Notes: generated from the sequence alone by a model not told the origin. A stretch of DNA of 64,000 nucleotides from Patescibacteria group bacterium (GCA_040384745.1 JAZKIT010000002.1:87425-151424), one strand, 5' to 3'; positions 1 to 35,144 are shown, counted from the stretch's first letter. Made by a program: numbers and translations.

Positions 1-209
1 TTTTCACGCACTTCGGCGATCTGAAGGGTGTTTTGGGCGGTGTTTTGATTGACGGGCGGCTTGGCTGGCGCGGAAGCTTGACTACTGCCGATTGGTTGCG
101 GCATGTCTGGAGGTACCGGAAAGGCCTGGGCAGGAGTGGGCGTGGCACTACCGATAGGCGGCAGACCGGGCGACACCGGTGGCTGATTAGCTGGTTGGCT
201 CGGCGGCAT
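1..209 (-). CDS. Partial CDS (N-terminus, continues past left edge). Possible T4SS VirB4/TrsE-type ATPase, by position only.
   Basis: ATG at 209 on the minus strand, open to position 3: MPPSQPANQPPVSPGLPPIGSATPTP...NTLQIAEVRE. It lies directly downstream of the PrgI-like gene, the slot usually held by the VirB4-type ATPase in Gram-positive-type T4SS loci. No ATPase motif is visible in the 69 aa available. Confidence 0.45.
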   Translation of the reverse strand, partial: MPPSQPANQPPVSPGLPPIGSATPTPAQAFPVPPDMPQPIGSSQASAPAKPPVNQNTAQNTLQIAEVRE

Positions 210-246
210 TAAAGACTCTCGTTCCCACTCGTTACGCCGATTTATG

Positions 247-1248
247 TTAGCGAAGTGATATCACTACCTCATCTTCAGAAAGTTTTTCTTTCTCGTGAAT
301 GCGATTGGCCTCTCTGGCAATCGTCTCCACCGATAAATCGGGATTATTTGCAAGGTTAATTATATCAGGCGACAACGGCTTTTCGCTAGGCTTTTCGGGC
401 TCTGGTGGAATCGGATTTTCAACCGGGGCTTGAACCGGCGTATCGCCCATAGGCGAAAGTACCGATTGGTGCATGGTTGGGTATGGGTTGAATGCCACGG
501 TAATGTCCGGCTCATCAGCGGTTGGCTGTGGCGAAGGTGCAAATAGGTCGGCGGGCGGCGCCAGCGAGGCATAAGGGTCAGTGGGTAGCACAGTTGGCGT
601 GACTGGCTGGGCGAATCCGGTCGGCGGCGGCACGGCTACGCCTGCGGATTGGACGCGAAAGCGCTCGAGCATTTTTTGGTGGCGTTGGGCGTCGACTTGG
701 TCAAGCTTGGTGTCGAGGCTCTGCCCTATTCCCATGGTCTCGTCGAGCATGTCGGGGGCTGCCTGGGCTTCTAGGTAGGCGTCATTGGTCATAGAGCCAG
801 GAGATGTTGGTATTGGACTTTGGACCCCGCGCACAGCCCAGCCACGTGAGTCGACGATACTTGCCAGGTAGCTGAGTCGCTGCTCGGCTTCGCTTTCGGA
901 AATGTCTTTGACGCGCCGGACTTCGACGACGTTCGGAACGGTAATTTCAACGAAGGCCTGGGTGCCATCGGGAACCCACATACGCTTACGTGGTTTGATG
1001 TAAAACGATACGATTGCCGCCAGGTACGTTTCCATAGGCTGGTCTTTGCGGAGCGGCAGTGCCAAGGCGCCAAACAGTAAGATTATCGGTAGCACAATGA
1101 CGAATAGCGGCAAGAACAGCTGACTTAAGAAATAGCCGATAAACCCTGCCCCGACCACGATAATCAAATAGATAAACTGCCGAAACGAAAACGGTCCGAT
1201 CAGCTTATCGTCGGCTTCGACGTCTTGGGGTACTTTATAGACTGCCAT
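247..1248 (-). CDS. PrgI-family (VirB3-like) T4SS membrane protein
   Basis: The N-terminus MAVYKVPQDVEADDKLIGPFSFRQFIYLII, followed by two TM helices, matches the PrgI-family signature as I remember it. It has a long Pro-rich C-terminal tail and is co-directional with the other T4SS-like genes. Confidence 0.75.
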   Translation of the reverse strand: MAVYKVPQDVEADDKLIGPFSFRQFIYLIIVVGAGFIGYFLSQLFLPLFVIVLPIILLFGALALPLRKDQPMETYLAAIVSFYIKPRKRMWVPDGTQAFVEITVPNVVEVRRVKDISESEAEQRLSYLASIVDSRGWAVRGVQSPIPTSPGSMTNDAYLEAQAAPDMLDETMGIGQSLDTKLDQVDAQRHQKMLERFRVQSAGVAVPPPTGFAQPVTPTVLPTDPYASLAPPADLFAPSPQPTADEPDITVAFNPYPTMHQSVLSPMGDTPVQAPVENPIPPEPEKPSEKPLSPDIINLANNPDLSVETIAREANRIHEKEKLSEDEVVISLR

Positions 1249-1256
1249 GTAAGTTT

Positions 1257-1265
1257 AGTATAGCA
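1257..1265 (-). promoter_or_regulatory. Extended -10 box (TGCTATACT on the minus strand) 8 nt upstream of the PrgI-like ATG
   Basis: The plus strand reads agtatagca. There is no Shine-Dalgarno between the box and the ATG at 1248. The same box recurs in front of many genes in this window. Confidence 0.5.
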
Positions 1266-1276
1266 ATAACTATTGA

Positions 1277-4200
1277 CTACATTCCCGCGTCAACCTTAGC
1301 GGTGTAGCTCGAGATATCCTCACCTCTTTGAAATGCAGCCAACATTTCCTGAGGTGCGCCCTTTACCTTACCAGCGGCTGTGGCATCGGCATTGAATCGT
1401 GAGATAAATGCCTTTAATTCATCTGGTTTGTCTTTGGCTAGTTTAGCAATAAGCTTCATTTGCGCTGGCTTCGACATTGAAGCGAATCTTTGGGCGCTTT
1501 GATCTGACCAGACGTCTGTCGAGTTTGAAACTTCTTTGAAGGTTTTTCCGGGTTTTTCATTGTTTGCCCAAACTTCAAAATCTCGTCCTGATGCTCGGAA
1601 GTCATTATCGAACGCGAGAATTTCCTTCAAGTCTAATTCGTCCGAGAGTGCTTTGTCGCGGGCCTCTCCTGTGGCCATCGACGCGTTCCCTTCCGTATGT
1701 GAAGATAGTGAGCGTTTGAGCGACTCAATGCCAGGCGACCCGTTTCCGCGCATTAGTTTTGCATATGCAACACGTTCTTCGGTTGTATCAGCGGCTGCAA
1801 ACCGCTGTTCTAGGGCGGAATTATCCGAAGCGACCTCGTACGGTAAGGTTGATTGAATATTCTGAATGTTTTCCATCATCTCTTTTGACTGAGATGCCTT
1901 TGCCGCGGCTGCAACTCTGCGTGCTCCGGCCGCTCCTTGTACTCCAGCCGCCGCTAACGCAACAGCCGTCGGATCACCCGATTTCGTTACGAGCTGCCCG
2001 GTGTAGTCGCTCTGCCTTGCTCTATTCGCGGAATCTAGTCGTGCGTTAGCGACATTATGAGCGACGATTTCATCGAGAGATCGAGCTTGAACTGCGTTTG
2101 CTTCAAGGTCAACGTTTGCAGTTTTCATTGCGTGTTCGGCGTCAGACTTCTGAATGCCGAATTTAGATGCTTTCGGGTCGTTTACCCCAAATGCTGCCGC
2201 TGCCGCCTTGCCCCTTGCGTCAAGCGCTTCATATTTTGAATCGCGGCGCATCCGTCCTCTTCGAAACGCATCTAATCGTCCGATACCTTTGCGCTGCTGG
2301 GCTAGCTCGGTTCGACGGTTGTCGAGACCCTTGCCTATTTGGCTTAATCGGCCACCAAGTTGTTTGCCACCCATTCGGTTGCTTCGGTCGGCTAGCCCGC
2401 TAACCCTTTGCCCTATATTGCCAGCGGCAGACAACGAACCTTTTAATATGGCCGGAACCGCGAATAGCGGAACTGCAAGCACGGCTAGGGCGACAAGTTT
2501 CAGTATCTGTTCATCGTCGCCACCTTCTCCCCCATCGCCGGCGATTCCCATCAGGATGTTCGATGCAAGCGTGCTAGCGCCAAAGACGATGCCGACGATA
2601 GGAAATACCATAAGCGTGGCCACGAAGGCCTTCCACCACTTTTTAAACCAGTCTTCGGTATTTGGTAGCAAGTAGGCGACGAACGCCAGCGGCGATACGA
2701 TGATGAGGATAAGTACGAGCGCCTGGCGGGCAACCAAGATAAGGATGATGACCGCGAGGGCAATAAGAACCGTCGGTGCAAGGGCGATTGCGACGATAAG
2801 CAGCACGCCGACCCCTGCTACGAGCATGGCTCCAATTATTTCAGACCATGTTCCCCCGTCTTCACTAGTACCAGATGCAGCGGCGGGCGTTATTTCTTGA
2901 AAGAACGAATAAATACTACTACCAACAATATTACTGGCGTCGACCATTAACGCGCAGACATAGAACGAAATATTAACTAATATGGCCGCTACTACAATAC
3001 GTGGCAGCATTTTTTTAATGCCGTAATTACTAATTCCGGCGCTGGTAATTTGCGAGTAAACGATGACCATGAACGAAATGACAAAGGCGATATTAGCGAA
3101 GTCACGGAAGGTTGACCATGCGGTTTGCGTACCCTCGTCTTGCACAAGTGCCGGGCGGACTTCAAGCAAGTCTCGCAGGAAGATGAACGCAAGGTCGTTT
3201 ATCGTAGCCAAAAAGTTCATGACCGGGCAAACGATCCAGCCGATGCCATCGATTGCGCAGGTGGTCGTGTCTTCTTCTGAGCTATCTTCTGATCCGCTTA
3301 CTTCAGTGCTCGCAAGTGCGTCGGGGTTGTCGCGTAGCCAGGTGCTATAGGCGCCGGCATTGTCGCGCGCGATATTGACTATTTGGTCACACGAACGCTT
3401 TTGGTAAGCGTCAAAACTGCCGCCGGTGGTCGCAACGTATGCCAGGTTGCTGTCACCCGTTGGTATGCCGACACCCTGAATATAGCGCAGTACCATTCCC
3501 TCACCGTCTGGAACGAACACGGGTACGGCATACTGCGAGTTACTACTGGCCGCGCCGGGAACGTCACCGCTCGATTCGTACAGCGTGGTGTTTGGGAATT
3601 CCATTTGACAGCCGCGCTGGCTGACCAATGTCGCATACGCCCGGACGTATTCCTCGGGCCCTCCGAACGCTGGCTTTTTTGAAAACGCAGCATTTTTAAA
3701 TGACTCAGCTACTTCGTCTTTGTCTTTGTCGTTGTCCCAGTCCTTGTCACCGACGCCAGCAATACAGTCGTCGACATTGCCGTCCTGGCCATCTTCGTAC
3801 TGCGCACCACTCAGGCCACAAAATGCGGTACGCGGGTTATCAAACCCAAGGTACCCGAAGGCCGTTTGAACGAGCGACTCGGTCTGGCAGTCGCGTGTTC
3901 CCTGTAAGTTAGCGCTCGCGGTTTTGCCCGGGTACATGGCGCCAAGTGCTTGGGCGCTGGTGTTGCCTTCAAAGAAGTCCCAGCTGCTCATTTCATTCGG
4001 TGTCACTTTGTCTATGTCGACGTGCCGAAAGCAGGCATATAGCCAGTAGTAGTGCTGGTGAGCGCTGGCGTTTTTGTAGACATCGTCGGCGATAAAGCTT
4101 TCACCGGGCCATTCAGGGGCGGCGCTGGCAGGCTTCGTCAATACGGGAGTTACTAGAGACGCCAGCAGAGAAAAAACGGTGAGCGCGACCACAAAGAAGA

Positions 4201-4285
4201 TTGGATTATTGCCAATCCACGCCAGCGATAGTGTGCGTGCTACCGGATTGTTTCTGTTCCCGCCTGTTCGTCGTTTTTTTGTCAT
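1277..4285 (-). CDS. Large polytopic membrane protein, VirB6/TrbL-like (putative T4SS channel component), paralogue A
   Basis: About 1002 aa. It has an N-terminal TM/signal anchor and a roughly 330-aa Cys-containing ectodomain. The boundary motif is TTCAIDGIGWIVCPVM, followed by a block of several TM helices and then a roughly 430-aa hydrophilic A/K/R/E-rich tail. It shares architecture and the boundary motif with 5361..8603. The start is set at the ATG at 4285 because the ATG at 4303 overlaps a TATAAT box. Confidence 0.6.
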   Translation of the reverse strand: MTKKRRTGGNRNNPVARTLSLAWIGNNPIFFVVALTVFSLLASLVTPVLTKPASAAPEWPGESFIADDVYKNASAHQHYYWLYACFRHVDIDKVTPNEMSSWDFFEGNTSAQALGAMYPGKTASANLQGTRDCQTESLVQTAFGYLGFDNPRTAFCGLSGAQYEDGQDGNVDDCIAGVGDKDWDNDKDKDEVAESFKNAAFSKKPAFGGPEEYVRAYATLVSQRGCQMEFPNTTLYESSGDVPGAASSNSQYAVPVFVPDGEGMVLRYIQGVGIPTGDSNLAYVATTGGSFDAYQKRSCDQIVNIARDNAGAYSTWLRDNPDALASTEVSGSEDSSEEDTTTCAIDGIGWIVCPVMNFLATINDLAFIFLRDLLEVRPALVQDEGTQTAWSTFRDFANIAFVISFMVIVYSQITSAGISNYGIKKMLPRIVVAAILVNISFYVCALMVDASNIVGSSIYSFFQEITPAAASGTSEDGGTWSEIIGAMLVAGVGVLLIVAIALAPTVLIALAVIILILVARQALVLILIIVSPLAFVAYLLPNTEDWFKKWWKAFVATLMVFPIVGIVFGASTLASNILMGIAGDGGEGGDDEQILKLVALAVLAVPLFAVPAILKGSLSAAGNIGQRVSGLADRSNRMGGKQLGGRLSQIGKGLDNRRTELAQQRKGIGRLDAFRRGRMRRDSKYEALDARGKAAAAAFGVNDPKASKFGIQKSDAEHAMKTANVDLEANAVQARSLDEIVAHNVANARLDSANRARQSDYTGQLVTKSGDPTAVALAAAGVQGAAGARRVAAAAKASQSKEMMENIQNIQSTLPYEVASDNSALEQRFAAADTTEERVAYAKLMRGNGSPGIESLKRSLSSHTEGNASMATGEARDKALSDELDLKEILAFDNDFRASGRDFEVWANNEKPGKTFKEVSNSTDVWSDQSAQRFASMSKPAQMKLIAKLAKDKPDELKAFISRFNADATAAGKVKGAPQEMLAAFQRGEDISSYTAKVDAGM

Positions 4286-4343
4286 ATATATAATAGGCCC
4301 CAAGTGAGGCCCATTATACTACGAAACACTTATGCTTACAGTA

Positions 4344-5225
4344 TTAATTGACGGGAACGACTTCGGAAACTTTCCAGACGCCGTCTTCTTGTACCCAGGT
4401 GGCGCGACCGTGTCCGGTTATCGGGGTGCTGTACGTTTCAGTGATGAATTCGTGAGCACGGTTTTGGTCGGAGTTGTCTTGACGGGTGTATTCGTATTCG
4501 ACGACGATTTCGCTACCATTGTTTGACAGCTCGACGGCCGACGTCAATGTCGTACTGTGTTCGTATGGCTCGACATCCAGCGAGTTGCCCGTGTCGGTCG
4601 TACCCATGTTGGTCAGTACGACTGCGTAATGGTTTCGGATATTGTCGTTGACTTCCCGTGCGAGGTCAGGCCGCTGTTGCCAGTCGCTGACATACAGGAC
4701 TGAAACGTAGGCGTCGTCGACCGGCTTGTTTAGCTCGGCGATGTACTGGTCGCGAGTGATTAGCGGGTCCTCATTGGCTTTCGTCTCGGGAGTCGCGCCG
4801 GTCATGAGCCATTCATTTTCCTGTTCGAATATCGCATACATGAGTGATTCGCCGTCATTGTAGCGTTCGACGGTCAATTCAGTTGGACCAACACTGGTTG
4901 TTTCGGGGGTAGCAGTTACTTCCGGAGTAGTTTCGGTAGTTGGATCAGATGTAGCTTCAGCGGTCGCTTCGGTCTGGCCTGGGTTGGGCGAAGATGTAGC
5001 GGCCGGGTTGCGTTCTGGGTTAGGGCTGGAGTCATTCTCTCCCTTTGTCAGGTAAAATCCACCGCCAATGACAGTTGCTGCAACTGCAGCGGCAAGTCCT
5101 GCGACCATTCCCTTTCGTCCTTTGCCTCCATCAACGGTGGCTTCGACATGCTGGCGTGCGGCGTCTTGTTCGGCCGGGGTTGCATTTGGGTTTGCTGGAA
5201 CTGGTCGTTCGTGACTAAGACTCAT
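4344..5225 (-). CDS. Membrane-anchored protein with T/E/P-rich linker and NTF2-like C-terminal domain (possible VirB8/PrgL analogue)
   Basis: It has one N-terminal TM helix (GLAAAVAATVIGGGFYL) and a low-complexity linker (TSSPNPGQTEATAEATSDPTTETTPEVTATPETT). The globular C-terminus ends WVQEDGVWKVSEVVPVN, a typical NTF2-like terminal strand. The VirB8 analogy is inference from topology and position. Confidence 0.5.
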   Translation of the reverse strand: MSLSHERPVPANPNATPAEQDAARQHVEATVDGGKGRKGMVAGLAAAVAATVIGGGFYLTKGENDSSPNPERNPAATSSPNPGQTEATAEATSDPTTETTPEVTATPETTSVGPTELTVERYNDGESLMYAIFEQENEWLMTGATPETKANEDPLITRDQYIAELNKPVDDAYVSVLYVSDWQQRPDLAREVNDNIRNHYAVVLTNMGTTDTGNSLDVEPYEHSTTLTSAVELSNNGSEIVVEYEYTRQDNSDQNRAHEFITETYSTPITGHGRATWVQEDGVWKVSEVVPVN

Positions 5226-5290
5226 TGTAGTGTTCCTTGCCGCTTGTATGGGGCTTTAGGTTATGACAAAGCGAATGTGCTTATGTCATT

Positions 5291-5319
5291 ACTATACACC
5301 TTATGCTTGAAAAAGTCAA
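5291..5319 (-). promoter_or_regulatory. Sigma-70-type promoter for the 293-aa gene
   Basis: The minus strand reads TTGACT, a 17-nt spacer, then TG-extended TATAGT. AAGGAA lies upstream of the ATG at 5225. Confidence 0.55.
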
Positions 5320-5360
5320 GTAGGTGGAATTGACGTCAAGGGTTGTTATTGAGGCGGAAG

Positions 5361-8300
5361 TTACTTCTTGTCGACCATTGTTAGGGGGTCGTACTCCGTT
5401 GGAATCAATCGACCGGCGGCAGTCTGGACCTCGGCGGTAGAAGGTGTCGGCGTCGTTGGGTCGAGGTAGAGCTTCATGGCTTCAAGGGCTCGCTTGTGGC
5501 GAGTTTCGAGCTTAGCGCCGATGATTGGGTCGTTCATGGCTTCATCGATAACCTCGACGTAGGCCTTGCGGTTGGCTTCGCCTGTCCTTGCGAGTTCCGA
5601 AGGATTGTCACGGAAGACCTGAAGGCTACGAACCATCTCGTCGATGTCCATCTTGCCAACCCTGTCGGCTTTGATTTTACCGGTGCCGATGTCGCGTAGA
5701 ATCGCAACTTCCGTGCCGGCCCGGTAGGTACCGGTTTGTAGGTTTGCTTTGTCTGTTCCGCTTAGGTGTGTGACCTGGTGTCCTGTCTTGGCCATGGCGT
5801 CGGCGTAAATCTGCTGGAGGTTGCGTCGTCGCTCTACTTCGTCATCGTCGAGAGTACTTGTCTTGGTCGTGTCTGCTGCGTCGTAGTAATTGCCATTTTC
5901 AAACTGCATACCTTGGGTAGCGATGTAGTCAGACATTTTTTGCATGGCGGTGTTGTTGGCTTTTTCCGAAGCGAGCTGCTTTATGGCCGCGTGGATGTGC
6001 ATATCGGTTGCCGGTTCGTTACCGCGCAGCTTACCGGTTTGGTATACCTCAATCAGTTCCTCGGGCTGGTAACCTTCGTTACTGAAGGTGCTTTCGACGG
6101 CCTCGACGTTTTGCATGTGGAGGGCTGAACCTTCCTTGTACAGTTGCGCGACCACCTTGGTACGACCATATTCATCAACACCGGCGGCACGATCCAGCAG
6201 GTTATCGTCGGCCATTAGGCGTTTTGTTAGGTTTGATTTGACGACATAGGTTGCATTAGCCTTGCGCTTCTCTTCGACCTCGATGGTTTCTTCGGACTGG
6301 CGGATGATGTCGATTTGATCAGCGACCTGGCTGGTTATTGGTCCATGGCGCCTTTGGTAGTCGTCGGTTCGCCCAGCGCTGGCTTCGACCAGGATTGATT
6401 CCCATTCGGCCTGGAGTGACTTGAGGTTCTTGGCGTTGGCCTGGCGTTCGAGCTGGCGAGAATAGACGGTGCGGTCAGTTAGGGTAATATTCTCCCAGTT
6501 CGCCTTAGCGGCGTCTTCGACCAGTTCGTTGGCTTGATTTGCTCGCCCCTGGAATTCCTGTGTCTTAATGACCTGATTTTTGAGCGTCGCGTCAGTGAGG
6601 ATGGTTTCGGCAAGCTGGGCCGAGCCTTCAACTTCGACAATCTTGGCGGCGTTTTCGCCGATACCCTTTTGGACGACGGTACGGATCTTGGCGGCACGAG
6701 CGGCGGCGTAGCGTGGCGTGGCTCCATTTGCGATGCTTTGGTTTAAGAAGCTGGTGTCGGCTTCGTTCATCTCGTCCTCATCGATCTTGGCGAGGCCGGT
6801 CGTTAGGCGAGTTTCGGTTTGCATGGCACGACGGGTAGAGTCGGTCTTTAAGAGGTCTTGCCAGTGTTGCTCGTTGTGCGATTCATGAAGGTTATGGGCA
6901 AGCTGATTGTCGCGCTTGTAGGTGTCGAGATTGCCGTAACCACGGACTGGTCGGCCAGTAATTCGACTACGGACGTCGTCTCGGACTTCGCGGTTGTCAC
7001 CACCCCAGCGGCCGGTTTGGCCGTGCCATTCGTTTTTAGCTCGCTCTTCATCGAGTCCCTTTTCTGCTTCGCGGGAGTTGTTCTTGGCGTATGAACGAGC
7101 GGCCGAGCGACGCATGTGCTGACCAAAGACCCCCGTGCGGAAGCCATTAGTACGCTGCAGTTCGGCATTCTTGGCGTTGTTACGGGCAACGTGCTCGCCG
7201 AGGCGGTCTTTATTGTAGTTCTTGTAGCGGTCGTAGAGTCCACGTTGTGGGTTGTTTATGATGCCCCCGAAGCGGTTCAGTATGCCGCCACCAAGCTTGA
7301 GGAGGAGCGGCGTAATCGCCAGAGGCGCGACCATAACACCAAGCCCTAAGATAATCGTTTCGATAGACGTAGCGCTTCGGATGATGACTTCTCCGGCGAG
7401 CTGTGCACCACCAAACACGGCACCGAATGCCGGGAACATGACAAGCATAGTGAAGAACAGGCTGCGCCATTTTTCAAACCACTTCTCGGTGTTGGGTAGT
7501 ATATAGGCCGCGAATGCCAAAGGCGCGATAGCGATAAGAATGACGATAATTGCCTGGCGCGCCGCCAGAACGAAGAACGTAACGAAGGTAAGCAGTGCCC
7601 CGCCGAACAAGAAGGGCGCCAGCATGTACCACAGGCCGGTGACGGCCGCACCGGCTGCCCCGGCGGAAAGTGCCGTGAACCCGACTGCTGCCCCGGTGCC
7701 ACCCGCCAGTACCCAGGCGGTGACGCTGGTCCAGTTGACGTCTTCGGCGGTATTTGAACCCGGTAGGACGTCGTCGCGGACCGATTCGAACAGCTGGTTA
7801 ACGCCGTAGCCGGCAATATTACTGATATCAACGGCTGCCGCACAAATGAGGTAACTGATGTTAATAAGGATGGCGACGATGACCAGCCGCGGGAGAATCT
7901 TGCGAATCCGGTAGGCGTCAAAGCCGCCCCCGACGAGGTAGCTGTAAATGATGACCAGAAAGCCGATAACGAAGGCGACATTAGCCAGGTCTCGCGAATA
8001 GACCCATACGCGGTAGATGGGGTTGTCGACCGATGTGGTGATGGGTTGGACTTCAAGGAAGCCGCGAATGCGTTCGAAGACCCAGTCCATGCCTTCGGAT
8101 ATGGCCCACATGACCGGACAGACGAGCCAGCCAACGCCTTCGATGGTGCAGTTGTTCGTCAACGAGTCGTCGGTATTGGCTATCTCGCCTGCAGGTACAG
8201 GGGTGAGCGTGATGCTTTGCTTGCCGCTTTGGTTGATGTAGCGATTGGGTGGATTAAGGGTAAAGCGCACATAGGTGGCTTCTTTTTCGCTTTTGGGTTC

Positions 8301-8603
8301 GACCACGCCATTGGCGAAGTAGATGAAGTAGACGAGGTTAGGGTTGACCGAGCTGTCGGTGTACTGGTAGATAGCCGGGCTGGCTTTTATGTCGCTTGGA
8401 AACGCGCCGATTGGGTCGACTTGGGCATATGTGTTGCCGTCGTAGACGATTGAGTCGCCTTGCCACGTAGCATCGGCCGCACTAACAGAGGGAGCGGTCG
8501 TAAAAATATACGCGAAACAGGCCACAAAGAACGTGGCCAGCAGCATGCTGAATTTCCGCGGGTTATTGCTACCACGCGGAGCTCTAACGAGAACTTCCCA
8601 CAT
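5361..8603 (-). CDS. Large polytopic membrane protein, VirB6/TrbL-like, paralogue B
   Basis: 1080 aa. It has a signal peptide (FAYIFTTAPSVSAADA), an ectodomain, the boundary motif NNCTIEGVGWLVCPVM, a multi-TM block and a roughly 620-aa hydrophilic tail. It is a paralogue of 1277..4285. Confidence 0.6.
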   Translation of the reverse strand: MWEVLVRAPRGSNNPRKFSMLLATFFVACFAYIFTTAPSVSAADATWQGDSIVYDGNTYAQVDPIGAFPSDIKASPAIYQYTDSSVNPNLVYFIYFANGVVEPKSEKEATYVRFTLNPPNRYINQSGKQSITLTPVPAGEIANTDDSLTNNCTIEGVGWLVCPVMWAISEGMDWVFERIRGFLEVQPITTSVDNPIYRVWVYSRDLANVAFVIGFLVIIYSYLVGGGFDAYRIRKILPRLVIVAILINISYLICAAAVDISNIAGYGVNQLFESVRDDVLPGSNTAEDVNWTSVTAWVLAGGTGAAVGFTALSAGAAGAAVTGLWYMLAPFLFGGALLTFVTFFVLAARQAIIVILIAIAPLAFAAYILPNTEKWFEKWRSLFFTMLVMFPAFGAVFGGAQLAGEVIIRSATSIETIILGLGVMVAPLAITPLLLKLGGGILNRFGGIINNPQRGLYDRYKNYNKDRLGEHVARNNAKNAELQRTNGFRTGVFGQHMRRSAARSYAKNNSREAEKGLDEERAKNEWHGQTGRWGGDNREVRDDVRSRITGRPVRGYGNLDTYKRDNQLAHNLHESHNEQHWQDLLKTDSTRRAMQTETRLTTGLAKIDEDEMNEADTSFLNQSIANGATPRYAAARAAKIRTVVQKGIGENAAKIVEVEGSAQLAETILTDATLKNQVIKTQEFQGRANQANELVEDAAKANWENITLTDRTVYSRQLERQANAKNLKSLQAEWESILVEASAGRTDDYQRRHGPITSQVADQIDIIRQSEETIEVEEKRKANATYVVKSNLTKRLMADDNLLDRAAGVDEYGRTKVVAQLYKEGSALHMQNVEAVESTFSNEGYQPEELIEVYQTGKLRGNEPATDMHIHAAIKQLASEKANNTAMQKMSDYIATQGMQFENGNYYDAADTTKTSTLDDDEVERRRNLQQIYADAMAKTGHQVTHLSGTDKANLQTGTYRAGTEVAILRDIGTGKIKADRVGKMDIDEMVRSLQVFRDNPSELARTGEANRKAYVEVIDEAMNDPIIGAKLETRHKRALEAMKLYLDPTTPTPSTAEVQTAAGRLIPTEYDPLTMVDKK

Positions 8604-8612: not shown

Positions 8613-8641
8613 ATTTTATCATTTTACAGAGAAAAAGTCAA
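8613..8641 (-). promoter_or_regulatory. Sigma-70-type promoter for paralogue B
   Basis: The minus strand reads TTGACT, a 17-nt spacer, then TAAAAT, with 9 nt to the ATG at 8603. Confidence 0.55.
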
Positions 8642-8724: not shown

Positions 8725-9129
8725 ATGAAAATAAAACAAATAGTAGTTTCTTTAATGCTTCCGGCATTACTGTGTGGCTTCGTCGCCGCAAGCCTTACTA
8801 CCAGCGCGGCTGGTGCCCAAAACACCTGTGGTGGCGTGGACACTTCGATTATCGCGTGTGATGCCAAGAACTCTAAAGGTGGCGGCACCGAAGACAATGG
8901 CGTGTGGGCGCTGCTGCTAATCGTGGTGAATATAATGACCGCCGGTGTCGGGATTATCGCGGTCGCGGGAATCGTCTACGGAGCGATTTTGTACACCACT
9001 GCTGAGGACAAGGCCGACCAAGTAAAGAAAGCCACCGACATTATTACGAATGTCATAATCGGACTGATTTTGTTCGCGTTGATGTACGCGGGACTGAACT
9101 TTATCGTACCGGGAGGGGTCTTTGCATGA
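8725..9129 (+). CDS. T4SS-pilin-like small membrane protein (TrbC/VirB2-like), copy P1
   Basis: It has a signal peptide, a Cys-bounded loop (TCGGVDTSIIAC) and two C-terminal TM helices separated by a short polar turn (YTTAEDKADQVKKATDII). It is the first of seven tandem genes. Confidence 0.7.
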   Translation: MKIKQIVVSLMLPALLCGFVAASLTTSAAGAQNTCGGVDTSIIACDAKNSKGGGTEDNGVWALLLIVVNIMTAGVGIIAVAGIVYGAILYTTAEDKADQVKKATDIITNVIIGLILFALMYAGLNFIVPGGVFA

Positions 9130-9629
9130 TGTATAAACTGTCCAGCTTATTTATTGCATTAGCCTTGATGGTCGGCGTGAGCGCGCTACTGTTGCCAGCT
9201 CAAGCGGCACACGCGGCAAAATTTGGACCGGGAGCAACCGGTGAAGGCGGCCAGTCCTGTGCTTCGAGCTTTCTAGGCTTCCCTGCTTGGTTTGACGGCC
9301 TGCCTCGTAAGCCGGACACCTGTCAGGTGCTGGTGTCTGAAAAGACCGAAGTCGACGATAACGGCAAGACCGTCGAGTTGGCTGATCAAAACGATTTAAG
9401 CAACTTCATTTTTATGATCATTTTGAACGTTATTGAAATTGCTCTCAGGCTGATTGGGTTTATAGCGGTCGGATTCATTATTTACGGCGGGTTCAAATAC
9501 CTTACCAGTGCCGGTTCGGCAGATCGCATAACAGCCGGCCGTAAGATTATTCAAAATGCGGTAATTGGCTTGGTGATTTCGTTCTTCTCGGTAGCGATTG
9601 TTAACCTCGTAGCGGGGAATATAGGGTGA
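9126..9629 (+). CDS. T4SS-pilin-like small membrane protein, copy P2
   Basis: Its start overlaps the P1 stop (ATGA). It has a signal peptide (PAQAAHA), a Cys...Cys loop (SCASSFLGFPAWFDGLPRKPDTC) and the same C-terminal TM-turn-TM pattern (GGFKYLTSAGSADRITAGRKIIQNAVIGLV). Confidence 0.7.
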   Translation: MMYKLSSLFIALALMVGVSALLLPAQAAHAAKFGPGATGEGGQSCASSFLGFPAWFDGLPRKPDTCQVLVSEKTEVDDNGKTVELADQNDLSNFIFMIILNVIEIALRLIGFIAVGFIIYGGFKYLTSAGSADRITAGRKIIQNAVIGLVISFFSVAIVNLVAGNIG

Positions 9630-9919
9630 TGAACCTTCTGTCTTACCTTGCGGCTCGAATTCCGGCTGGTGGCGAAACGGGTATTCCTGTCGTCACCGCT
9701 GAAAACGCGGTGAACGGTATTTTGAATACGGTGTACCTTGCTGCTGGAATTATTGCGGTCATCGTCATTATCATTAGCGGTATGTTTTATGTCATTTCGC
9801 AGGGTGACCCAAGTAAGATCAAGCGCGCGAAGGATGGTATATTATATTCGGTCGTCGGGCTTGTGGTCGTACTGTTCGCATTCATCGTGACGAATTATGT
9901 AATAGGAAGGTTTGTGTAG
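9626..9919 (+). CDS. T4SS-pilin-like small membrane protein, copy P3 (short, no Cys loop, no obvious signal peptide)
   Basis: A GTG/ATG start overlaps the P2 stop. The C-terminal pattern is SGMFYVISQGDPSKIKRAKDGILYSVVGLVVVLFAFIVTNYV. Confidence 0.65.
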   Translation: MMNLLSYLAARIPAGGETGIPVVTAENAVNGILNTVYLAAGIIAVIVIIISGMFYVISQGDPSKIKRAKDGILYSVVGLVVVLFAFIVTNYVIGRFV

Positions 9920-9923
9920 CATT

Positions 9924-10301
9924 ATGATGAGGCAAAAAATGAAGCGTATCGTATTGGCTGTCGCCATGGTACTTGGCGCCGGGGTATTCGCGGCTCTGCC
10001 GGCTGGAGCGATTAACGTATATAAGGCATGTAACGCAGCCAATGCATCTGAACCGGTTTGTCAGGCAACTGGCGAGACGGTCGATGGACCTGTTCAGGCG
10101 GTGATATCGACGTTGCTCGTTGTGATCGGAATCGTTGCGGTTATCATGATTATCGTAGGCGGCATTCGGTACACTCTGTCGAATGGCGATGCCTCACAAA
10201 TCAAATCGGCCAAGGACACTATTTTGTACGCGGTTATTGGGCTGGTCGTGGCAATAATGGCCTATGCGATTGTTAACTTCGTAGTATCACGGTTCGTCTA
10301 A
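9924..10301 (+). CDS. T4SS-pilin-like small membrane protein, copy P4
   Basis: It has a signal peptide (ALPAGA), the Cys loop ACNAANASEPVC and the conserved GGIRYTLSNGDASQIKSAKDTILYAVIGLVVAIMAYAIVNFV. The start is uncertain (9924, 9927 or 9939). Confidence 0.7.
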   Translation: MMRQKMKRIVLAVAMVLGAGVFAALPAGAINVYKACNAANASEPVCQATGETVDGPVQAVISTLLVVIGIVAVIMIIVGGIRYTLSNGDASQIKSAKDTILYAVIGLVVAIMAYAIVNFVVSRFV

Positions 10302-10317
10302 AAATTATTAAGGAGAA

Positions 10318-10737
10318 ATGAATATGATAACGACACTTCTGCACAAACTAAAGATCTCAGTATTTGTCGCTGCTGGTATAGTAGCGATCGGTTTAGCCTC
10401 GCCTGCCCCGGCGGCGATGGCGATTGACTGTGGCACTGGCGGCACCGACGCCGGCAAACCGGCCTGTAAAGTCCAACAGGGTGTTACTAAGGCGGGCGGT
10501 GCCGGTCAAGATCTTCAGCCGCAGATTCAGAACGCTATCAATGTGCTGCTGTTCATCATTGGTGTGGTTGCGGTCATCATGATTATTCTTGGTGGACTAC
10601 GGTACATCCTGTCGAATGGCGACTCGGCCCAGATTACCAGTGCTAAGAACACTATTTTGTACGCGGTCATCGGACTCGTCGTTGCACTCCTCGCCTATGC
10701 GATTGTTAACTTCGTAGTGGTGCAGTTTGTAGCATAA
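10318..10737 (+). CDS. T4SS-pilin-like small membrane protein, copy P5
   Basis: AAGGAG lies 4 nt upstream. It has a signal peptide, the Cys loop DCGTGGTDAGKPAC and the conserved GGLRYILSNGDSAQITSAKNTILYAVIGLVVALLAYAIVNFV. Confidence 0.75.
   Translation: MNMITTLLHKLKISVFVAAGIVAIGLASPAPAAMAIDCGTGGTDAGKPACKVQQGVTKAGGAGQDLQPQIQNAINVLLFIIGVVAVIMIILGGLRYILSNGDSAQITSAKNTILYAVIGLVVALLAYAIVNFVVVQFVA
10615..10682 (+). repeat. 68-nt block identical to 11053..11120 (P5/P6)
   Basis: The string aatggcgactcggcccagattaccagtgctaagaacactattttgtacgcggtcatcggactcgtcgt is read identically in both genes, while the flanking codons differ at many synonymous sites. Confidence 0.9.
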
Positions 10738-10770
10738 TGAAACAATTTGGAAAGAAAGGTACTAATTAAA

Positions 10771-11190
10771 GTGAAATCAATACTATACTCGTTCATTACT
10801 CGAACTATGGTTGCGGCGTTTATGGTTATCGGGGCGACCGTCGCGGTCGTGCCAGCACTGACGGTTCAGGCCGCCTGCGACACGACGGCAAAAGTTACCG
10901 GTGTCGGTCAAGGTGCGGAGTGTAGCAAGTCTGCCCAGCAGCGAGGCAATCTTGGTAATGTTATTGAAACCGTGACAAATGTCCTACTGTTCATCATCGG
11001 AGCGATCGCGGTCATCATGATTATCATCGGTGCTATCAAGTACACCGTCAGCAATGGCGACTCGGCCCAGATTACCAGTGCTAAGAACACTATTTTGTAC
11101 GCGGTCATCGGACTCGTCGTCGCGCTGCTTGCTTATGCGATTGTTAAATTCGTTACCGACGCATTTATCATGAAGCCTGGAGTCTCGTAG
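10771..11190 (+). CDS. T4SS-pilin-like small membrane protein, copy P6
   Basis: It has the Cys loop ACDTTAKVTGVGQGAEC and the conserved GAIKYTVSNGDSAQITSAKNTILYAVIGLVVALLAYAIVKFV. The start is uncertain (GTG 10771 or TTG 10747). Confidence 0.7.
   Translation: MKSILYSFITRTMVAAFMVIGATVAVVPALTVQAACDTTAKVTGVGQGAECSKSAQQRGNLGNVIETVTNVLLFIIGAIAVIMIIIGAIKYTVSNGDSAQITSAKNTILYAVIGLVVALLAYAIVKFVTDAFIMKPGVS
11053..11120 (+). repeat. 68-nt block identical to 10615..10682
   Basis: Same string as at 10615..10682. Confidence 0.9.
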
Positions 11191-11262
11191 CTGATAGCCC
11201 TTAACATTCACACCGACATCTGATATAAAAGAAGCAAGATTACCTGAAAGGAATACACAATT

Positions 11263-11667
11263 ATGAAAACAGCAATCACTAACATGGCGAAAGGCCTATT
11301 GGTTGTTCCGGCGCTCGCGCTCGCGCTAAGCTTTGCGGCGGTGCCAGCGGCCGAAACAACTTCAGCCTTCGATCAAGGCATTACTGACGGTGCCAATTCG
11401 GCACAAGGCACGGACCAACAGTCGGACCTATTTGGCACGACCGGTATCTTCCGCACCATTACTAACGTTCTATTGTTCCTTATCGGTGCAGTATCGGTGA
11501 TCATGCTGATCATCGGTGGTATTCGTTACACCGTTTCTGGCGGTGATAGCACGGCGGTTACCGGTGCGAAGAACACCATCCTCTATGCGATTGTTGGAAT
11601 CGTCGTCGCGCTACTGGCATTTGCCGTGGTCAACTTCGTACTCGGCAGTTTCTCTACTGATAACTAG
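11263..11667 (+). CDS. T4SS-pilin-like small membrane protein, copy P7 (no Cys loop)
   Basis: AAAGGA lies upstream. It has a signal peptide (VPAAET) and the conserved FRTITNVLLFLIGAVSVIMLIIGGIRYTVSGGDSTAVTGAKNTILYAIVGIVVALLAFAVVNFV. Its closest relative is the remote copy at 13534..13941. Confidence 0.75.
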   Translation: MKTAITNMAKGLLVVPALALALSFAAVPAAETTSAFDQGITDGANSAQGTDQQSDLFGTTGIFRTITNVLLFLIGAVSVIMLIIGGIRYTVSGGDSTAVTGAKNTILYAIVGIVVALLAFAVVNFVLGSFSTDN

Positions 11668-11762: not shown

Positions 11763-11800
11763 AATAAAAATACCGCCCGAGTGTAGGGGCGGTATTTTTT
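11763..11800. terminator. Bidirectional terminator, serves hsp20 on the minus strand
   Basis: TACCGCCC-gagtgtag-GGGCGGTA flanked by an A-run and T6. Confidence 0.8.
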
Positions 11801-14333: not shown

Positions 14334-14387
14334 CAGACGCTGTTATTTTAATTGACTCCTCTACACGTGACATTCATAATGCTCTTA

Positions 14388-14957
14388 ATGCTTAAACACA
14401 AACATAATGGATTTACGATAGTCGAATTACTCATCGTAATCGTCGTTATTGGGATTCTTGCGGCAATAACCATCGTTGCCTATAACGGTATTCAGGTCAG
14501 GGCTAAAAATACATCCGCTGCTTCAACCGCTAAAGGAATGGTTTCTATGCTCAAGACGTATTCTGTTAGTAATACGACATTACAAGCAAATACCGTTACT
14601 AAAGACCACCTTTGCTTAGGCAACCCAGGAGAGTTCCCTGCGATTTCTGGAATGGGAGCTGGGGAATGTCGTAACGACATTGGCATGGGAAATTGGAAAG
14701 CTGATGATAATTTCGCGTCCGAGCTTGGCAAAGTCGGTAGGGCATCGAGTGCTACAGCGCTAGTGACTGCAACCGACGGCCAAAGGTATAGGGGCATTTG
14801 GTACGACGATAATAGCGCTACCGACCCTAGGGTTTACTATGCACTTCAAGGAGCAAGCCAAACGTGTGCAGTGAGCGGGGCGACTGCAGTGAGCGGTAAT
14901 GGAATTACTATATGCAACGTCAGAATAGACTTCATGATTAACTACCTCGCCCCCTAG
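14388..14957 (+). CDS. Type IV pilin (prepilin N-terminal cleavage/methylation domain)
   Basis: MLKHKHNG|FTIVELLIVIVVIGILAAITIVAYNG is a class III signal peptide. CATAAT (14375-14380) lies 7 nt upstream and there is no SD. Two upstream in-frame ATGs are less likely. Confidence 0.85.
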   Translation: MLKHKHNGFTIVELLIVIVVIGILAAITIVAYNGIQVRAKNTSAASTAKGMVSMLKTYSVSNTTLQANTVTKDHLCLGNPGEFPAISGMGAGECRNDIGMGNWKADDNFASELGKVGRASSATALVTATDGQRYRGIWYDDNSATDPRVYYALQGASQTCAVSGATAVSGNGITICNVRIDFMINYLAP

Positions 14958-20393: not shown

Positions 20394-21233
20394 ATGACCA
20401 ATCACTACGAATCACGCACGATTAACGTTATCTCGCTGAACGCGATGCTCGACAAAAAGCGGACCGACCAGGGGCTAATATTACCGCAGGATGAGCGTGT
20501 TCAGTCACTCGCAGCGACCATCAATAATTTCTCTGCCGAAAAAAGTGTCGTCGGTGTTCAGGAGGTGTTTAAAAGTGCCGCGCAGCACAACGGCGAAGTG
20601 CTTGCCGAACTGTGCGGCTACGGTCCCGGCTTTTGTGTTGAGCATAATCAACGACAAAATGCCTATCCCGGCGACAATCGTGGACGAGCCGATGAATACC
20701 TGCTGATGTTCGGTGAACTGGTCGACCGCGTCGACGACATCGACCTTGGCGATTGCCGCCACGCCGCCCTGGCGGACATTGGCGGAATCGCAATCGCGAT
20801 GGTGCACCCCAGAGCCGGGCGGTCCCTGAAGGCTCGATCGGCCCGCAAAGACCAAATGATTACTTTGGTAGACGCATTGAGCGGCTACGAAAGCGCCGTC
20901 GTATTCGGTGATTTGAACGAGCCGCCAGTCAGGTATGTATCTGCCGGACGCGACTATCTTGGGCGGCATGGATTCCGGTCGGCCAATGCGCTGCTCAGAC
21001 AGCCTTATCCACGAACGTACCCGACGGACGCATATAAGGAAATCCGGGGTATAACCCGACCGTTGCCCCTCGACGACATACTTGTTCGAGGTGAGCGGGT
21101 GCGCGTGCTGGCGGCGGGTGTGCTTGAAGCGGTGACTGAACAGCGGGCACAAACCGAAAAATACAGTGCGGCACCAATGGAAGCGAGTGACCATGTGGGC
21201 GTGTTTGCGACGCTTGACTTAGGCCAGATATGA
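20394..21233 (+). CDS. Endonuclease/exonuclease/phosphatase (EEP) family protein
   Basis: INVISLNAM near the N-terminus, VVFGDLNE in the middle and SDHVGVFATLDL at the C-terminus are the typical EEP catalytic motifs. Confidence 0.75.
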   Translation: MTNHYESRTINVISLNAMLDKKRTDQGLILPQDERVQSLAATINNFSAEKSVVGVQEVFKSAAQHNGEVLAELCGYGPGFCVEHNQRQNAYPGDNRGRADEYLLMFGELVDRVDDIDLGDCRHAALADIGGIAIAMVHPRAGRSLKARSARKDQMITLVDALSGYESAVVFGDLNEPPVRYVSAGRDYLGRHGFRSANALLRQPYPRTYPTDAYKEIRGITRPLPLDDILVRGERVRVLAAGVLEAVTEQRAQTEKYSAAPMEASDHVGVFATLDLGQI

Positions 21234-26103: not shown

Positions 26104-27060
26104 ATGAATGACGTAACGACCTGTAATGACCGCGCCGAATGGAACGAACTCGTAAAGGCATCGAACGGACACCCGCTTCAGTTATGGGGCTGGGGGGACG
26201 TCAAAGCCGCTCATGGCTGGCGCGTCGAGCGCATACGGGCAGGGAAGGGCGGTGCGCAGCTGCTGATACGAGCGTTACCAGGACCGTTAGGTCCGTTGGT
26301 GTATATCCCGCGGGGGCCATTTGGCACTATGCTGTCGGATGAGTCAGTTCGACGTGCACTGTTGGAGTACATCAAAAAGACCTACCGGCCAACGCTTGTG
26401 ACGGTCGAGCCTGACACGACTGGAACCCTATCGTGGAAAGGCTGGAAACGGTCGTCGAACCATATACTGCTGGCACGGACGGCCGTTATGGACTTGGGGC
26501 GGTCCGATGACGACCTGATGCGAGTGATGAGTAAGAAAACCCGCCAATACATTCGTAAGTCGGGTGGGGAAGGGGTTGATGTCGTAACGGCCCAAAACTT
26601 AGCCGATGTGGACGAGTGTCTGGCGATTTACAAGCAGACCGCGCGACGGGCCGGTTTTGCGCTGCATGGAGACGAGTATTATCACGATATCTATACCAAT
26701 TTGGGTGATGACTCACCGATCTACATGGCGAAACGCCAGGGGGTTACCGTAGCGTTCTTGTGGCCGATTGTCACACCAGAAGTCGCCTTCGAACTGTACG
26801 GGGGAATGAACGACGAGGGCCAACGGGTGCGGGCGAACTACCACCTTAAATGGAGCGTCATTCAGGCCATGAAGGCCCGAGGGGTGAAGCGCTACGACGT
26901 GAATGGGCTGTTAAACGACGGCGTATCGGCGTTCAAACAGGGATTTATTCCTGATGAAACACACCTGAGTGGAACCTATGACTACCCGATGTCGCCACTG
27001 TACATCGTATGGAGTACGTTACTACCGACGGCAAAGAAGATTGCGCGCAAGCTGCGCTAA
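26104..27060 (+). CDS. FemAB-family peptidoglycan bridge aminoacyltransferase (FemX-like)
   Basis: The N-terminus W..LV..S....PLQLWGWGDVK and the overall length are typical of the FemAB family. TATAAT lies 7 nt upstream of the ATG. Confidence 0.75.
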   Translation: MNDVTTCNDRAEWNELVKASNGHPLQLWGWGDVKAAHGWRVERIRAGKGGAQLLIRALPGPLGPLVYIPRGPFGTMLSDESVRRALLEYIKKTYRPTLVTVEPDTTGTLSWKGWKRSSNHILLARTAVMDLGRSDDDLMRVMSKKTRQYIRKSGGEGVDVVTAQNLADVDECLAIYKQTARRAGFALHGDEYYHDIYTNLGDDSPIYMAKRQGVTVAFLWPIVTPEVAFELYGGMNDEGQRVRANYHLKWSVIQAMKARGVKRYDVNGLLNDGVSAFKQGFIPDETHLSGTYDYPMSPLYIVWSTLLPTAKKIARKLR

Positions 27061-29594: not shown

Positions 29595-30653
29595 TTAGTA
29601 GTACGATTGGCGGTAGCGTTTGTAATACAACCGTCGGACGAGCTTTTCGACGTAACGGTGCCACAGGGTAGCTTTCCAGCCGACGACGGGGATTTCGAAT
29701 GCACCGACGAACTGCGTCGCCTGTTTGTTGAAACTCGTTTTAAAACGGGCTAGTCCGGCAAACGGGTGGTCAGGGTTCTTGATTTGAGAGAGTGGCGGGA
29801 CGCCAGCGAGGTCGTGTTGCAGCGAGCCATGCTGTTTTGCCCACTGGATAACATGCCACTGAAGCAGGTGGCTGGCACCGTATGCGGTCCGCTGTCGAAC
29901 ACTGGCGCCGTCTTTGTACATACTTTTTGCCCCCAGTACCATGGCGAATGCACCGGCTACCAACTGACCTTCATAATAGGCAAAGAATAGCTGACCACTG
30001 CCGATGGCTTCGTAGGCCCGGTAAAAGTCACGATAATACTGGGGTGGTCGGATAGCAAACCCAGCGCCGGTCGCGGTTGCGTTGAATAGCTCGTACATCG
30101 CTTGGCAGTTGTCATCGGTGGCTGGCATCGCCTGGATGCTCACGCCGTCACGTTCGGCCCGACGAATGGCGTGACGGCCTTTTTGATTCAGATTCGTCAT
30201 AATGTCATCAAGATTTGGCGCGAGATCGACAAACACGGTGGCGTAATTCAACTGGACCGGTGCGGTTGGTATCAGTCCGAGCGACGAAACATCGACCGTG
30301 TGATCAAGCTCGGGTTCGATTTTTATAGTGAAGACGCCGTGGTCGGCGGCAAAGTCGCGAAGTTCGGTGCAGAGTGCGCGCAGGTCATCAACCGAAGTGG
30401 TGCTGGGACCTTTTGGGCAGTACCAGACCTTACCAAGCAGGGGAATGCGTTTTTCGATGACTGCGACGGCACGGTCTCCGACGAACAGGAAGCGCGCGGT
30501 CCAACCGGTTCGTGTTTTTTGGTCGATGAACTGCTTCGCTTGTAGGATATTACCGCCATCGGGATTCTTTATGATGTGGTCGTTCCAGGTCGAGATTTCT
30601 TCAGCGGTTGCAAAGCGAGTGGTCATGCGTTTTATTGTAGCGTGGTTCGGCAC
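29595..30653 (-). CDS. FemAB-family aminoacyltransferase, second copy
   Basis: 352 aa with the same architecture as 26104..27060, but strongly diverged. Confidence 0.7.
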   Translation of the reverse strand: MPNHATIKRMTTRFATAEEISTWNDHIIKNPDGGNILQAKQFIDQKTRTGWTARFLFVGDRAVAVIEKRIPLLGKVWYCPKGPSTTSVDDLRALCTELRDFAADHGVFTIKIEPELDHTVDVSSLGLIPTAPVQLNYATVFVDLAPNLDDIMTNLNQKGRHAIRRAERDGVSIQAMPATDDNCQAMYELFNATATGAGFAIRPPQYYRDFYRAYEAIGSGQLFFAYYEGQLVAGAFAMVLGAKSMYKDGASVRQRTAYGASHLLQWHVIQWAKQHGSLQHDLAGVPPLSQIKNPDHPFAGLARFKTSFNKQATQFVGAFEIPVVGWKATLWHRYVEKLVRRLYYKRYRQSYY

Positions 30654-34592: not shown

Positions 34593-35144
34593 CTAGTCGT
34601 CGTATTTGCCGAATACCCATGTCGAAGCAGACGCAGTCGCAGTCACGGTGGCCTCGGGGCATGGCCGAAATGTCGCAGATTCGCTAGGCGTCAGTGTACC
34701 TTCGGCGCCATAAATTCGAAGCAGGTACCACCCTTTGGTAAGAGTCGTGCAGCCCCATGTCGTTGCCGAGCCCTTATAGTATTGATAATATCGCGTGCAG
34801 TCGTTGGGCGAAGGTAGCGGGGGACGGGTTATCGTACTAGAATTTACCAGTCCCAGAAGCCACCTGCCTTCTGTGTCCCAGCTATAGGCGTACCCGACGC
34901 CGACGCTCGGGCATGTCGTTAGCGGATTATTCGTAGCATACGTGGCAGGGTATGTACCGCCGCTGGTGGTCTTATGAACCTCAAGTGCTTTCATGATAGA
35001 TTTGGCATCGCCGTAGCGTGCATTATCTCGGGCTTTCGATTGGATGCTTCCGAAGGCAATCGTGGTTATGGCTGCGAGAATGCCAATCACTACAATAACA
35101 ATCAACAGTTCGACGATTGTAAAACCGCTTATGTTTTTCTTCAT
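34593..35144 (-). CDS. Type IV pilin, immediately downstream of the ABC transporter genes
   Basis: MKKNISG|FTIVELLIVIVVIGILAAITTIAFGS. The upstream part of the 274-aa track ORF overlaps the permease gene and is rejected. Confidence 0.85.
   Translation of the reverse strand: MKKNISGFTIVELLIVIVVIGILAAITTIAFGSIQSKARDNARYGDAKSIMKALEVHKTTSGGTYPATYATNNPLTTCPSVGVGYAYSWDTEGRWLLGLVNSSTITRPPLPSPNDCTRYYQYYKGSATTWGCTTLTKGWYLLRIYGAEGTLTPSESATFRPCPEATVTATASASTWVFGKYDD

Follow-up and report, generated by a model that had tools for sequence, protein, structure and literature searches.

Five co-directional minus-strand genes occupy positions 1 to 8603 of a 64-kb stretch of Patescibacteria group bacterium DNA (GCA_040384745.1 JAZKIT010000002.1:87425-151424; hereafter the window) and raise the question of whether they belong to a conjugative element or to an apparatus by which an epibiont contacts its host. 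A preliminary description had named the same five genes, in agreement with our listing of open reading frames (ORFs), and had read them as a Gram-positive-type secretion or host-contact apparatus, resembling a type IV secretion system (T4SS), in a reduced epibiotic genome. We analyzed the whole window together with a further 10 kb to its left, which was read from a matching contig (NCBI GCA_040384005.1, record L001). We conclude with considerable confidence that the locus is the membrane-platform half of a chromosomal T4SS that Saccharimonadia inherit vertically and carry near the replication origin; it is orthologous to SEML1_0006-0019 of Southlakia epibionticum and most likely serves epibiont-host contact, not conjugation.

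Synteny with characterized systems

The reading as a host-contact apparatus is supported by synteny with S. epibionticum. In that species, SEML1_0006-0019 form an apparent T4SS that is essential by transposon sequencing (Tn-seq), most resembles Gram-positive conjugative T4SSs, includes essential predicted pilins, and has no recognizable coupling or relaxase proteins (Wang et al., 2023, Cell; PMC10633639). The tables of that study give, in order, an M23-type giant, a VirB4/TraC gene of 1839 nt, a TrsD-like gene of 882 nt, and a PrgI gene of 903 nt. These are followed by a 2997-nt gene (best structural match "Type IV secretion system protein", ARM-repeat-like tail), an 837-nt NTF2-like gene (SEML1_0012, ECOD e4ec6D1) scored as non-essential whichever of the three time points was taken, a 3267-nt gene (best match "TrbL/VirB6", ARM-like tail), and then divergent pilins (PMC10633639). 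SEML1_0011 tolerated many insertions, which suggests that a part of it, perhaps the tail, can be dispensed with. The order and strands of SEML1_0007-0019 are the same as here and the lengths are close, which amounts to a gene-for-gene match. The two loci differ in that reviews report six pilins for S. epibionticum against seven here, and in that the hydrolase described below has an extra GH43 domain. Essentiality by Tn-seq belongs to S. epibionticum; the present locus comes from a different, uncultured lineage, for which we report gene content, paralogy, synteny, and predicted folds.

The locus also matches a survey across the Patescibacteria, in which the VirB4 proteins formed a clade of their own whose ancestry is shared with MPF_FATA (Quinonero-Coronel et al., 2025; PMC12102498). 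In those loci, TrsD and PrgI homologues adjoin virB4, VirB2-like genes form arrays of 2-11, relaxases are almost absent, and the position is near dnaA/dnaN. We likewise find TrsD and PrgI genes by virB4, a pilin array, no relaxase, a peptidase and a lysozyme downstream of virB4, and replication genes nearby. The survey reported VirB8 homologues almost only in the class ABY1 and spoke of "the detected virB6 gene", in the singular, in S. epibionticum (PMC12102498); the present locus differs in having two VirB6-like paralogues and an NTF2-like protein together, an arrangement that we traced over 81 loci. A 2025 FEMS nomenclature review also covers the Saccharibacterial T4SS.

Among monoderm conjugative systems (MPF_FATA/MPF_FA, represented by Prg of pCF10, Trs of pGO1, and Tcp of pCW3), the shared parts are a PrgI/VirB3-like protein, TrsD, VirB4, a multidomain VirB1-like hydrolase, and a bitopic NTF2-like protein. 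MPF_FA systems also include VirB6-like proteins that are large, at 700-900 amino acids (aa), and carry extra domains (FEMS review). In contrast to those systems, the present locus is chromosomal and origin-adjacent and has neither a relaxase nor a type IV coupling protein (T4CP). It also has VirB2-like pilins, which Gram-positive T4SSs lack, and hhalign, using single-sequence templates, detects no homology to TcpH or TcpC of pCW3.

Extent and core components of the module

The T4SS module extends past positions 1 to 8603, with a pilin array on one side and genes for TrsD, VirB4, and cell wall hydrolases on the other. The preliminary description thus had the right genes and too short a span, having left out seven divergent VirB2-like pilin genes on the plus strand at 8725-11667. 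These genes (8725-9129, 9126-9629, 9626-9919, 9912-10301, 10318-10737, 10747-11190, and 11263-11667) all match Pfam T4SS_pilin (PF18895; E 1e-5 to 5e-13). A sequence scan found a strong terminator-like hairpin (13 pairs and then a T run) on the plus strand past the last of them, at 11766-11799.

At the other end, the minus-strand gene at 1-209 is present in the window as its 5′ part, translating to the N-terminal 69 aa. It is complete on the matching contig as a 291-aa protein (L001 11040-11915) with a precomputed PF26593 TraC-like match and no match in our local Pfam copy. This precomputed match and that of giant A to PF19590 (TrbL_3; see below) were not reproduced by local Pfam hmmscan, and the releases may differ. 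The gene is TrsD/TraC-like and does not encode an ATPase; TrsD has been described as a remote homologue of the N-terminal part of VirB4. It had been assigned to the VirB4 position, which in fact belongs to the next gene to the left, encoding a VirB4-type ATPase of 632 aa (P-loop_TraG 2.8e-28, AAA_10 5.7e-12, DUF87 3.2e-08). The expected ATPase is thus present, one gene beyond the truncated one.

The gene at 247-1248 (minus strand, 333 aa) had been called PrgI-like, and Pfam agrees: residues 5-90 match PrgI with E=1.7e-14 and a score of 54.5 bits (cut-off, 27). This PrgI/VirB3-like protein has two hydrophobic segments at residues ~16-62, and a long Pro/Ala-rich C-terminal extension follows its PrgI domain.

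Left of virB4, Pfam-type domain annotation identified an M23 peptidase of 1267 aa (L001 13865-17668) and a VirB1-like hydrolase of 732 aa that combines GH43, phage-type lysozyme, and CHAP domains (L001 17662-19860). The GH43 match is strong (E=1.3e-48), and just 3 of 81 loci have this fusion. The substrates of GH43 enzymes are arabinan or xylan, and the fusion might point to a host with an arabinogalactan wall. Residues 871-1069 of the M23 peptidase have a weak match to the endonuclease/exonuclease/phosphatase family (E=3.4e-4), and 14 related loci have comparable segments; the window itself encodes another, separate member of this family, of 279 aa, at 20394-21233. Beyond the 732-aa hydrolase come a 245-aa gene and then, on the opposite strand, dnaN, which lies ~9.6 kb left of the window start.

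The spacing of the minus-strand genes bears on their transcription. Gaps among them are 28-58 nt, apart from 135 nt before the 293-aa gene, and these short gaps fit co-transcription. The preliminary description had instead argued that most genes carry their own promoter-like box, which did not hold up: 7 such boxes were found against 9.5 ± 3.5 in shuffled sequence, which is no enrichment, and they stand ahead of giant B and the 293-aa gene only. The box upstream of giant B (TTGACT-17-TAAAAT with an extended TG; minus strand, 8613-8641) lies in the divergent intergenic region and is a consensus match only.

Two extended VirB6-like proteins

The two largest genes encode giant A (minus strand, 1277-4285; 1002 aa, or 1008 aa from a TTG at 4303), whose gene adjoins that of the PrgI-like protein, and giant B (minus strand, 5361-8603; 1080 aa, or 1061 aa from an internal ATG). 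From homology and gene context, we read the former as an extended VirB6/TrbL-like protein and the latter as its second, paralogous copy. BLASTP aligned the two with 30% identity over 482 aa (E=1e-52). The similarity is confined to a Cys-containing junction motif and the transmembrane block, with the N-terminal regions and the tails lying outside it.

In giant A, a signal or anchor at residues 24-49 is followed by an ectodomain of ~290 aa (alpha/beta at ~60-328) with six further Cys, the junction motif CAIDGIGWIVCPVM at 343-356, five long hydrophobic helices across 384-619, and a helical, R/K-rich tail of ~380 aa (620-1002). Giant B has a signal peptide at ~18-42, an ectodomain of ~110 aa (~43-150) with no further Cys, the motif CTIEGVGWLVCPVM at 152-165, a transmembrane block at 201-441, and a tail of ~630 aa (~450-1080). 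The near-identical boundary motif reported previously is thus present in both. Of the single architecture that had been proposed, the motif and the transmembrane block are common to the pair, and the Cys-containing ectodomain of roughly 330 aa is not; the long hydrophilic tails also exist, with lengths outside the 430-620 aa first given. Five residues (C343, G349, W350, C353, and P354) never vary among 72 aligned homologues; the remaining homologues have looser versions of the motif. The CxxxGxGWxxCP junction, presumably extracellular and with two invariant Cys, is a family-wide signature.

An AlphaFold2 model of giant A, built from the 72-sequence alignment, had a mean pLDDT of 76, with a confident alpha/beta ectodomain (60-328), the five long hydrophobic helices (384-619), and a helical tail. 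The loops after the first and third transmembrane helices (GIKKMLPR and PNTEDWFKKWWK, respectively) and the start of the tail are K/R-rich, and the other loops are acidic. This charge pattern would place the ectodomain extracellularly and the tail on the cytoplasmic side. Searched against PDB sequences, the giant A ectodomain had no match, and PHROGs yielded no informative match for the ectodomain, the two tails, or the NTF2-like domain.

The kinship of the giants with VirB6 was evaluated through their relatives and by fold. Giant A has a precomputed match to PF19590 (TrbL_3), and among at least 899 giant homologues most have precomputed TrbL_3 matches and some TrbL. Seven of 10 close homologues score at or above 25.9 bits, the cut-off of Pfam TrbL (PF04610), over model positions ~25-209 of 215. 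In a Foldseek search of 350,542 PDB chains with the giant A model, the R388 TrwI/VirB6 chains 7o3v, 8rt9, and 8rtd took ranks 1-3. TrwI shares with the model a helical bundle and an N-proximal membrane anchor; it differs in being ~270 aa long, without an ectodomain or tail, and is 13-17% identical to giant A. VirB6 of R388 binds VirB5, which is absent here. The similarity to VirB6/TrbL that the earlier reading called for is therefore present, weakly, and transitive homology and gene context provide weak but consistent evidence for a VirB6 relationship.

Several results weigh against our assignment of the locus. Both giants in the window fall below the gathering threshold of every local Pfam TrbL model (E 0.015-0.43: TrbL_4 0.015 and TrbL 0.43 for giant A, TrbL 0.083 for giant B), and the Foldseek matches of giant A to TrwI/VirB6 are not significant (E 0.18-0.63, TM-score 0.27-0.39, probability 0.28-0.87). 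A profile of 121 giant homologues matched PDB sequences through low-complexity tail regions only and found no VirB6. The giant alignment reached a probability of 3.7% against pCW3 TcpH with hhalign, a weak test with a single-sequence template, and a tblastn search of 72,556 plasmids with the giant core turned up nothing at E≤0.1. The S. epibionticum genes are taken as orthologues from synteny, lengths, and annotation rather than from direct alignment, and a coupling protein could sit elsewhere in the genome, as in S. epibionticum. Lastly, the function of the Saccharibacterial T4SS has been described as completely unknown (PNAS perspective), which makes any transport direction and substrate a matter of conjecture.

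The sub-threshold TrbL scores would also suit an explanation in which the giants are unrelated polytopic proteins and not T4SS channel parts at all. At NCBI, giant A is called "O-antigen polymerase"; in KEGG, the giants of S. epibionticum are assigned to K01992 (ABC-2 permease), and one of them has a weak "ABC transporter permease" label. Neither an O-antigen-polymerase nor an ABC-permease match was found in local Pfam and NCBIfam scans, and these labels look like misannotations. Homologues of the giants do reach the Pfam TrbL threshold, the best PDB fold matches of giant A are VirB6 chains, and the genes of the giants always lie between the pilin array and PrgI-TrsD-VirB4; we give this explanation almost no credence.

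Long tails and a duplicated channel component had been considered to fall outside the classical model of these systems. Precedents exist, in that extended VirB6 proteins are known in MPF_FA and, as the citations of the FEMS review suggest, in Rickettsiales. That review, citing Bao et al. (2009), describes extended VirB6 with five or more hydrophobic helices and large hydrophilic extensions whose contribution is not yet known. A paper on Anaplasma VirB6 paralogues describes a Rickettsiales T4SS with duplicated components and with virB6-4 genes that have unusual C-terminal extensions. Those systems are diderm, and the proteins here differ in their N-terminal secreted ectodomain and CxxxGxGWxxCP junction. 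Diderm systems of the Rickettsiales type have VirD4.

The NTF2-like protein

Between the giants, at 4344-5225 on the minus strand, lies the gene for a bitopic protein of 293 aa. Its transmembrane helix (~41-59) is followed by a T/E/P-rich linker, disordered and reaching to ~112, and by a C-terminal domain (115-293). The AlphaFold2 model was made from a four-sequence alignment, as the homologue profile search had yielded two proteins only; it predicts the C-terminal domain as three helices and a four-stranded sheet with a pLDDT of ~85-95. All leading Foldseek matches of this model are NTF2-like, so that model and fold search agree with the NTF2-like end noted previously. The VirB8 domain of PrgL appears at rank 21 (E=0.011, probability 0.96) and that of OrfG at rank 36, with RsgI9, ARC6, and polyketide cyclases ahead of them. 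No VirB8 or TcpC match was found in Pfam or NCBIfam, and hhalign of the family against TcpC gave a probability of 0.1%, again a weak test with a single-sequence template.

Positional homologues of this gene are found in 44 loci. The S. epibionticum counterpart stands apart from the remainder of its cluster in being dispensable. The proposal of a VirB8/PrgL analogue thus retains its transmembrane helix, its NTF2-like fold, and its place in a T4SS cluster, and loses any specific affinity to VirB8. The predicted fold is generic, compatible with VirB8 rather than specific to it, and a VirB8-like role is plausible from the context of the gene.

Conservation among Saccharimonadia

A search of species-representative genomes identified 573 relatives of the giants. 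The best 80, almost all titled Saccharibacteria or Saccharimonadia, were taken for comparison, and 81 loci were annotated by hidden Markov model (HMM) and jackhmmer searches. The conserved order is divergent pilins, then giant B and the NTF2-like gene where present, giant A, PrgI, TrsD, VirB4, the M23 peptidase, and the lysozyme. PrgI-TrsD-VirB4 stand in this order in most loci, with PrgI syntenic in 70 of 81 and TrsD homologues in position in 64 of 81; pilin arrays of 5-7 genes occur in 58 of 81. The same position and gene order across these Saccharimonadia loci argue for vertical inheritance.

Two co-directional giants occur in 43 loci (two matches to the core HMM in 44), and a single giant in 22 loci with enough upstream sequence, the missing copy being the upstream one (B). 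When each giant was compared with those of other loci, its nearest neighbor was of its own type in 35 of 43 cases for A and 38 of 43 for B; single giants are somewhat nearer to A. A and B are thus separate by sequence comparison, two old VirB6-like orthologue groups of which B is optional; the duplication is old, with one copy missing from part of the class. Giants of the relatives in these genomes are at most ~42-60% identical. A wider HMMER search with a 306-aa giant core matched 18,339 cluster representatives at E≤1e-3 and 4,326 at E≤1e-30, the top 150 of which are all long (~600-1480 aa).

Two actinobacterial records carry only an NTF2-like gene and one extended VirB6-like giant. One is Pseudoclavibacter sp. 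CFCC 11306 (NZ_WBKF01000001.1; L078 8309-12418; giant core HMM 1.8e-90) and the other a metagenome-assembled genome titled Microbacterium sp. (L052 8113-12295; 6.2e-98), for which misbinning is possible. No PrgI, TrsD, VirB4, or pilins were found within 10 kb of either pair. The Pseudoclavibacter pair lies amid genes for an Eco57I-type methylase, IrrE/HTH, a ResIII helicase, and GmrSD, in a stretch with a G+C content of 0.52-0.54 against 0.56-0.59 around it. We rejected recent horizontal transfer, since these giants are only 33-45% identical to Saccharibacterial ones; any transfer would have been old.

The conservation of the locus also speaks against a conjugative origin, in which the module would be an integrated conjugative element, or its decayed remnant, whose T4SS moves DNA between cells. 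PrgI, TrsD, VirB4, and the VirB1-like hydrolase are indeed parts of monoderm conjugation systems, and the Patescibacteria VirB4 clade shares ancestry with the MPF_FATA conjugation systems (PMC12102498). However, no relaxase, T4CP, integrase, or recombinase was found among window ORFs of at least about 190 aa or in the 10 kb to the left. The absence of DNA-processing genes holds over about 74 kb, and the earlier statement that 64 kb contain no relaxase, coupling protein, or integrase is borne out for ORFs of that size. Further, the locus stands by dnaN amid housekeeping genes, G+C content is even across the window with the locus uniform with its flanks, position and order are conserved over the 81 loci, and the giant core has no counterpart among the plasmids searched. 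We consider a conjugative element very improbable.

Proposed mechanism and function

We infer assembly, topology, substrate, and direction of transport mainly by analogy with other T4SSs. VirB4, TrsD, and PrgI would form a membrane-bound energizing complex. The VirB6-like giants may provide the central platform, at which pilins would be drawn from the membrane and polymerized into a pilus or conduit of the VirB2 type. The giant A ectodomain would project outward and the R/K-rich helical tails would reside in the cytoplasm, and the hydrolases could open the cell wall. Where the epibiont is attached, the machine may then mediate contact with the host and the passage of proteins or other molecules. 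With no relaxase and no coupling protein at the locus, host contact or transfer is its most likely purpose, rather than conjugation.

Effector export and the import of nutrients or nucleotides are treated as alternatives in the literature (PNAS perspective, FEMS review). Under the second, the pilus would be an import conduit like ComB of H. pylori, bringing in nucleotides, DNA, or building blocks from the host. The lack of a T4CP or relaxase at the locus would suit such a role, as would the inability of the group to synthesize nucleotides, amino acids, and fatty acids de novo. With ComB as precedent, nucleotide acquisition through the T4SS is put forward as a candidate in the PNAS perspective, and the FEMS review speculates on uptake through the pilus. 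On the other hand, no sequence feature here marks a direction of transport, and ComB-type systems work with ComEC, whose gene can be deleted without affecting the viability of S. epibionticum. We regard import as unlikely, though worth keeping in view; it differs from our reading in substrate and direction only and leaves the identity of the locus as a chromosomal Saccharimonadia T4SS unchanged.

For that T4SS, a more detailed model can be put forward as a speculation that we think doubtful as a whole. Giants A and B would form a heteromeric base of a VirB2 pilus, with the ectodomain of giant A in the role of a VirB5 stalk or tip. The ARM-like tails would replace the coupling protein for cargo docking, and the resulting tube would be the ~8.6-9 nm lance or conduit seen by cryo-electron tomography. 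Such tomography of another Saccharibacterium, Mycosynbacter, has recorded a tube of this width that joins the parasite to its Gordonia host. A link between this tube and the present locus would be conjecture. A width of 8.6-9 nm is in the size range of conjugative pili. If the model were true, the orphan pairs of giant and NTF2-like genes on Microbacteriaceae chromosomes would be traces of genes that passed between epibiont and host lineages.

Other features of the window

The other window ORFs of at least about 190 aa are housekeeping or ordinary chromosomal genes. They encode a class I tRNA synthetase, ArgRS, FemAB, TsaD, a Mur ligase, GroEL, PGI, MacB/FtsX with an ABC ATPase, ribonucleotide reductase, CTP synthase, GDH, DnaG, a sigma-70 factor, a type ISP restriction enzyme, and a ZIP transporter. 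The FemAB-family genes (26104-27060 and 29595-30653) flank those for TsaD and the Mur ligase, which suggests a set of genes for peptidoglycan cross-bridge synthesis. The type ISP restriction-modification enzyme (1047 aa, 45963-49106; Type_ISP_C 5.5e-81, N6_Mtase, Eco57I) is encoded in a stretch of lower G+C content (0.45-0.47 at 46-50 kb), and a CHASE-domain protein follows at 50354-51298. Four tRNA-Ser genes (tga, gct, cga, and gga) and one tRNA-Arg gene lie within 25 kb at 13097-37359. Proteins encoded at 14352-14957 and 34593-35417 carry a prokaryotic N-terminal methylation motif; these are type IV pilin-like and separate from the T4SS pilins.

Implications for epibiotic Saccharibacteria

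The system is already known and has been characterized by experiment in a relative, and the region described here is a further example of it. What it adds is a set of details: the division of the giants into orthologue groups A and B, the conserved Cys junction, a confidently folded ectodomain that matches nothing in the PDB, and the orphan gene pairs of two Microbacteriaceae records. Few machines are known to be essential for the epibiotic lifestyle of the Candidate Phyla Radiation, and the Saccharibacterial T4SS is among them. An optional giant B, the Cys junction, the ectodomain, and an NTF2-like partner that is dispensable in S. epibionticum could guide structural and domain-deletion work in cultivable relatives.

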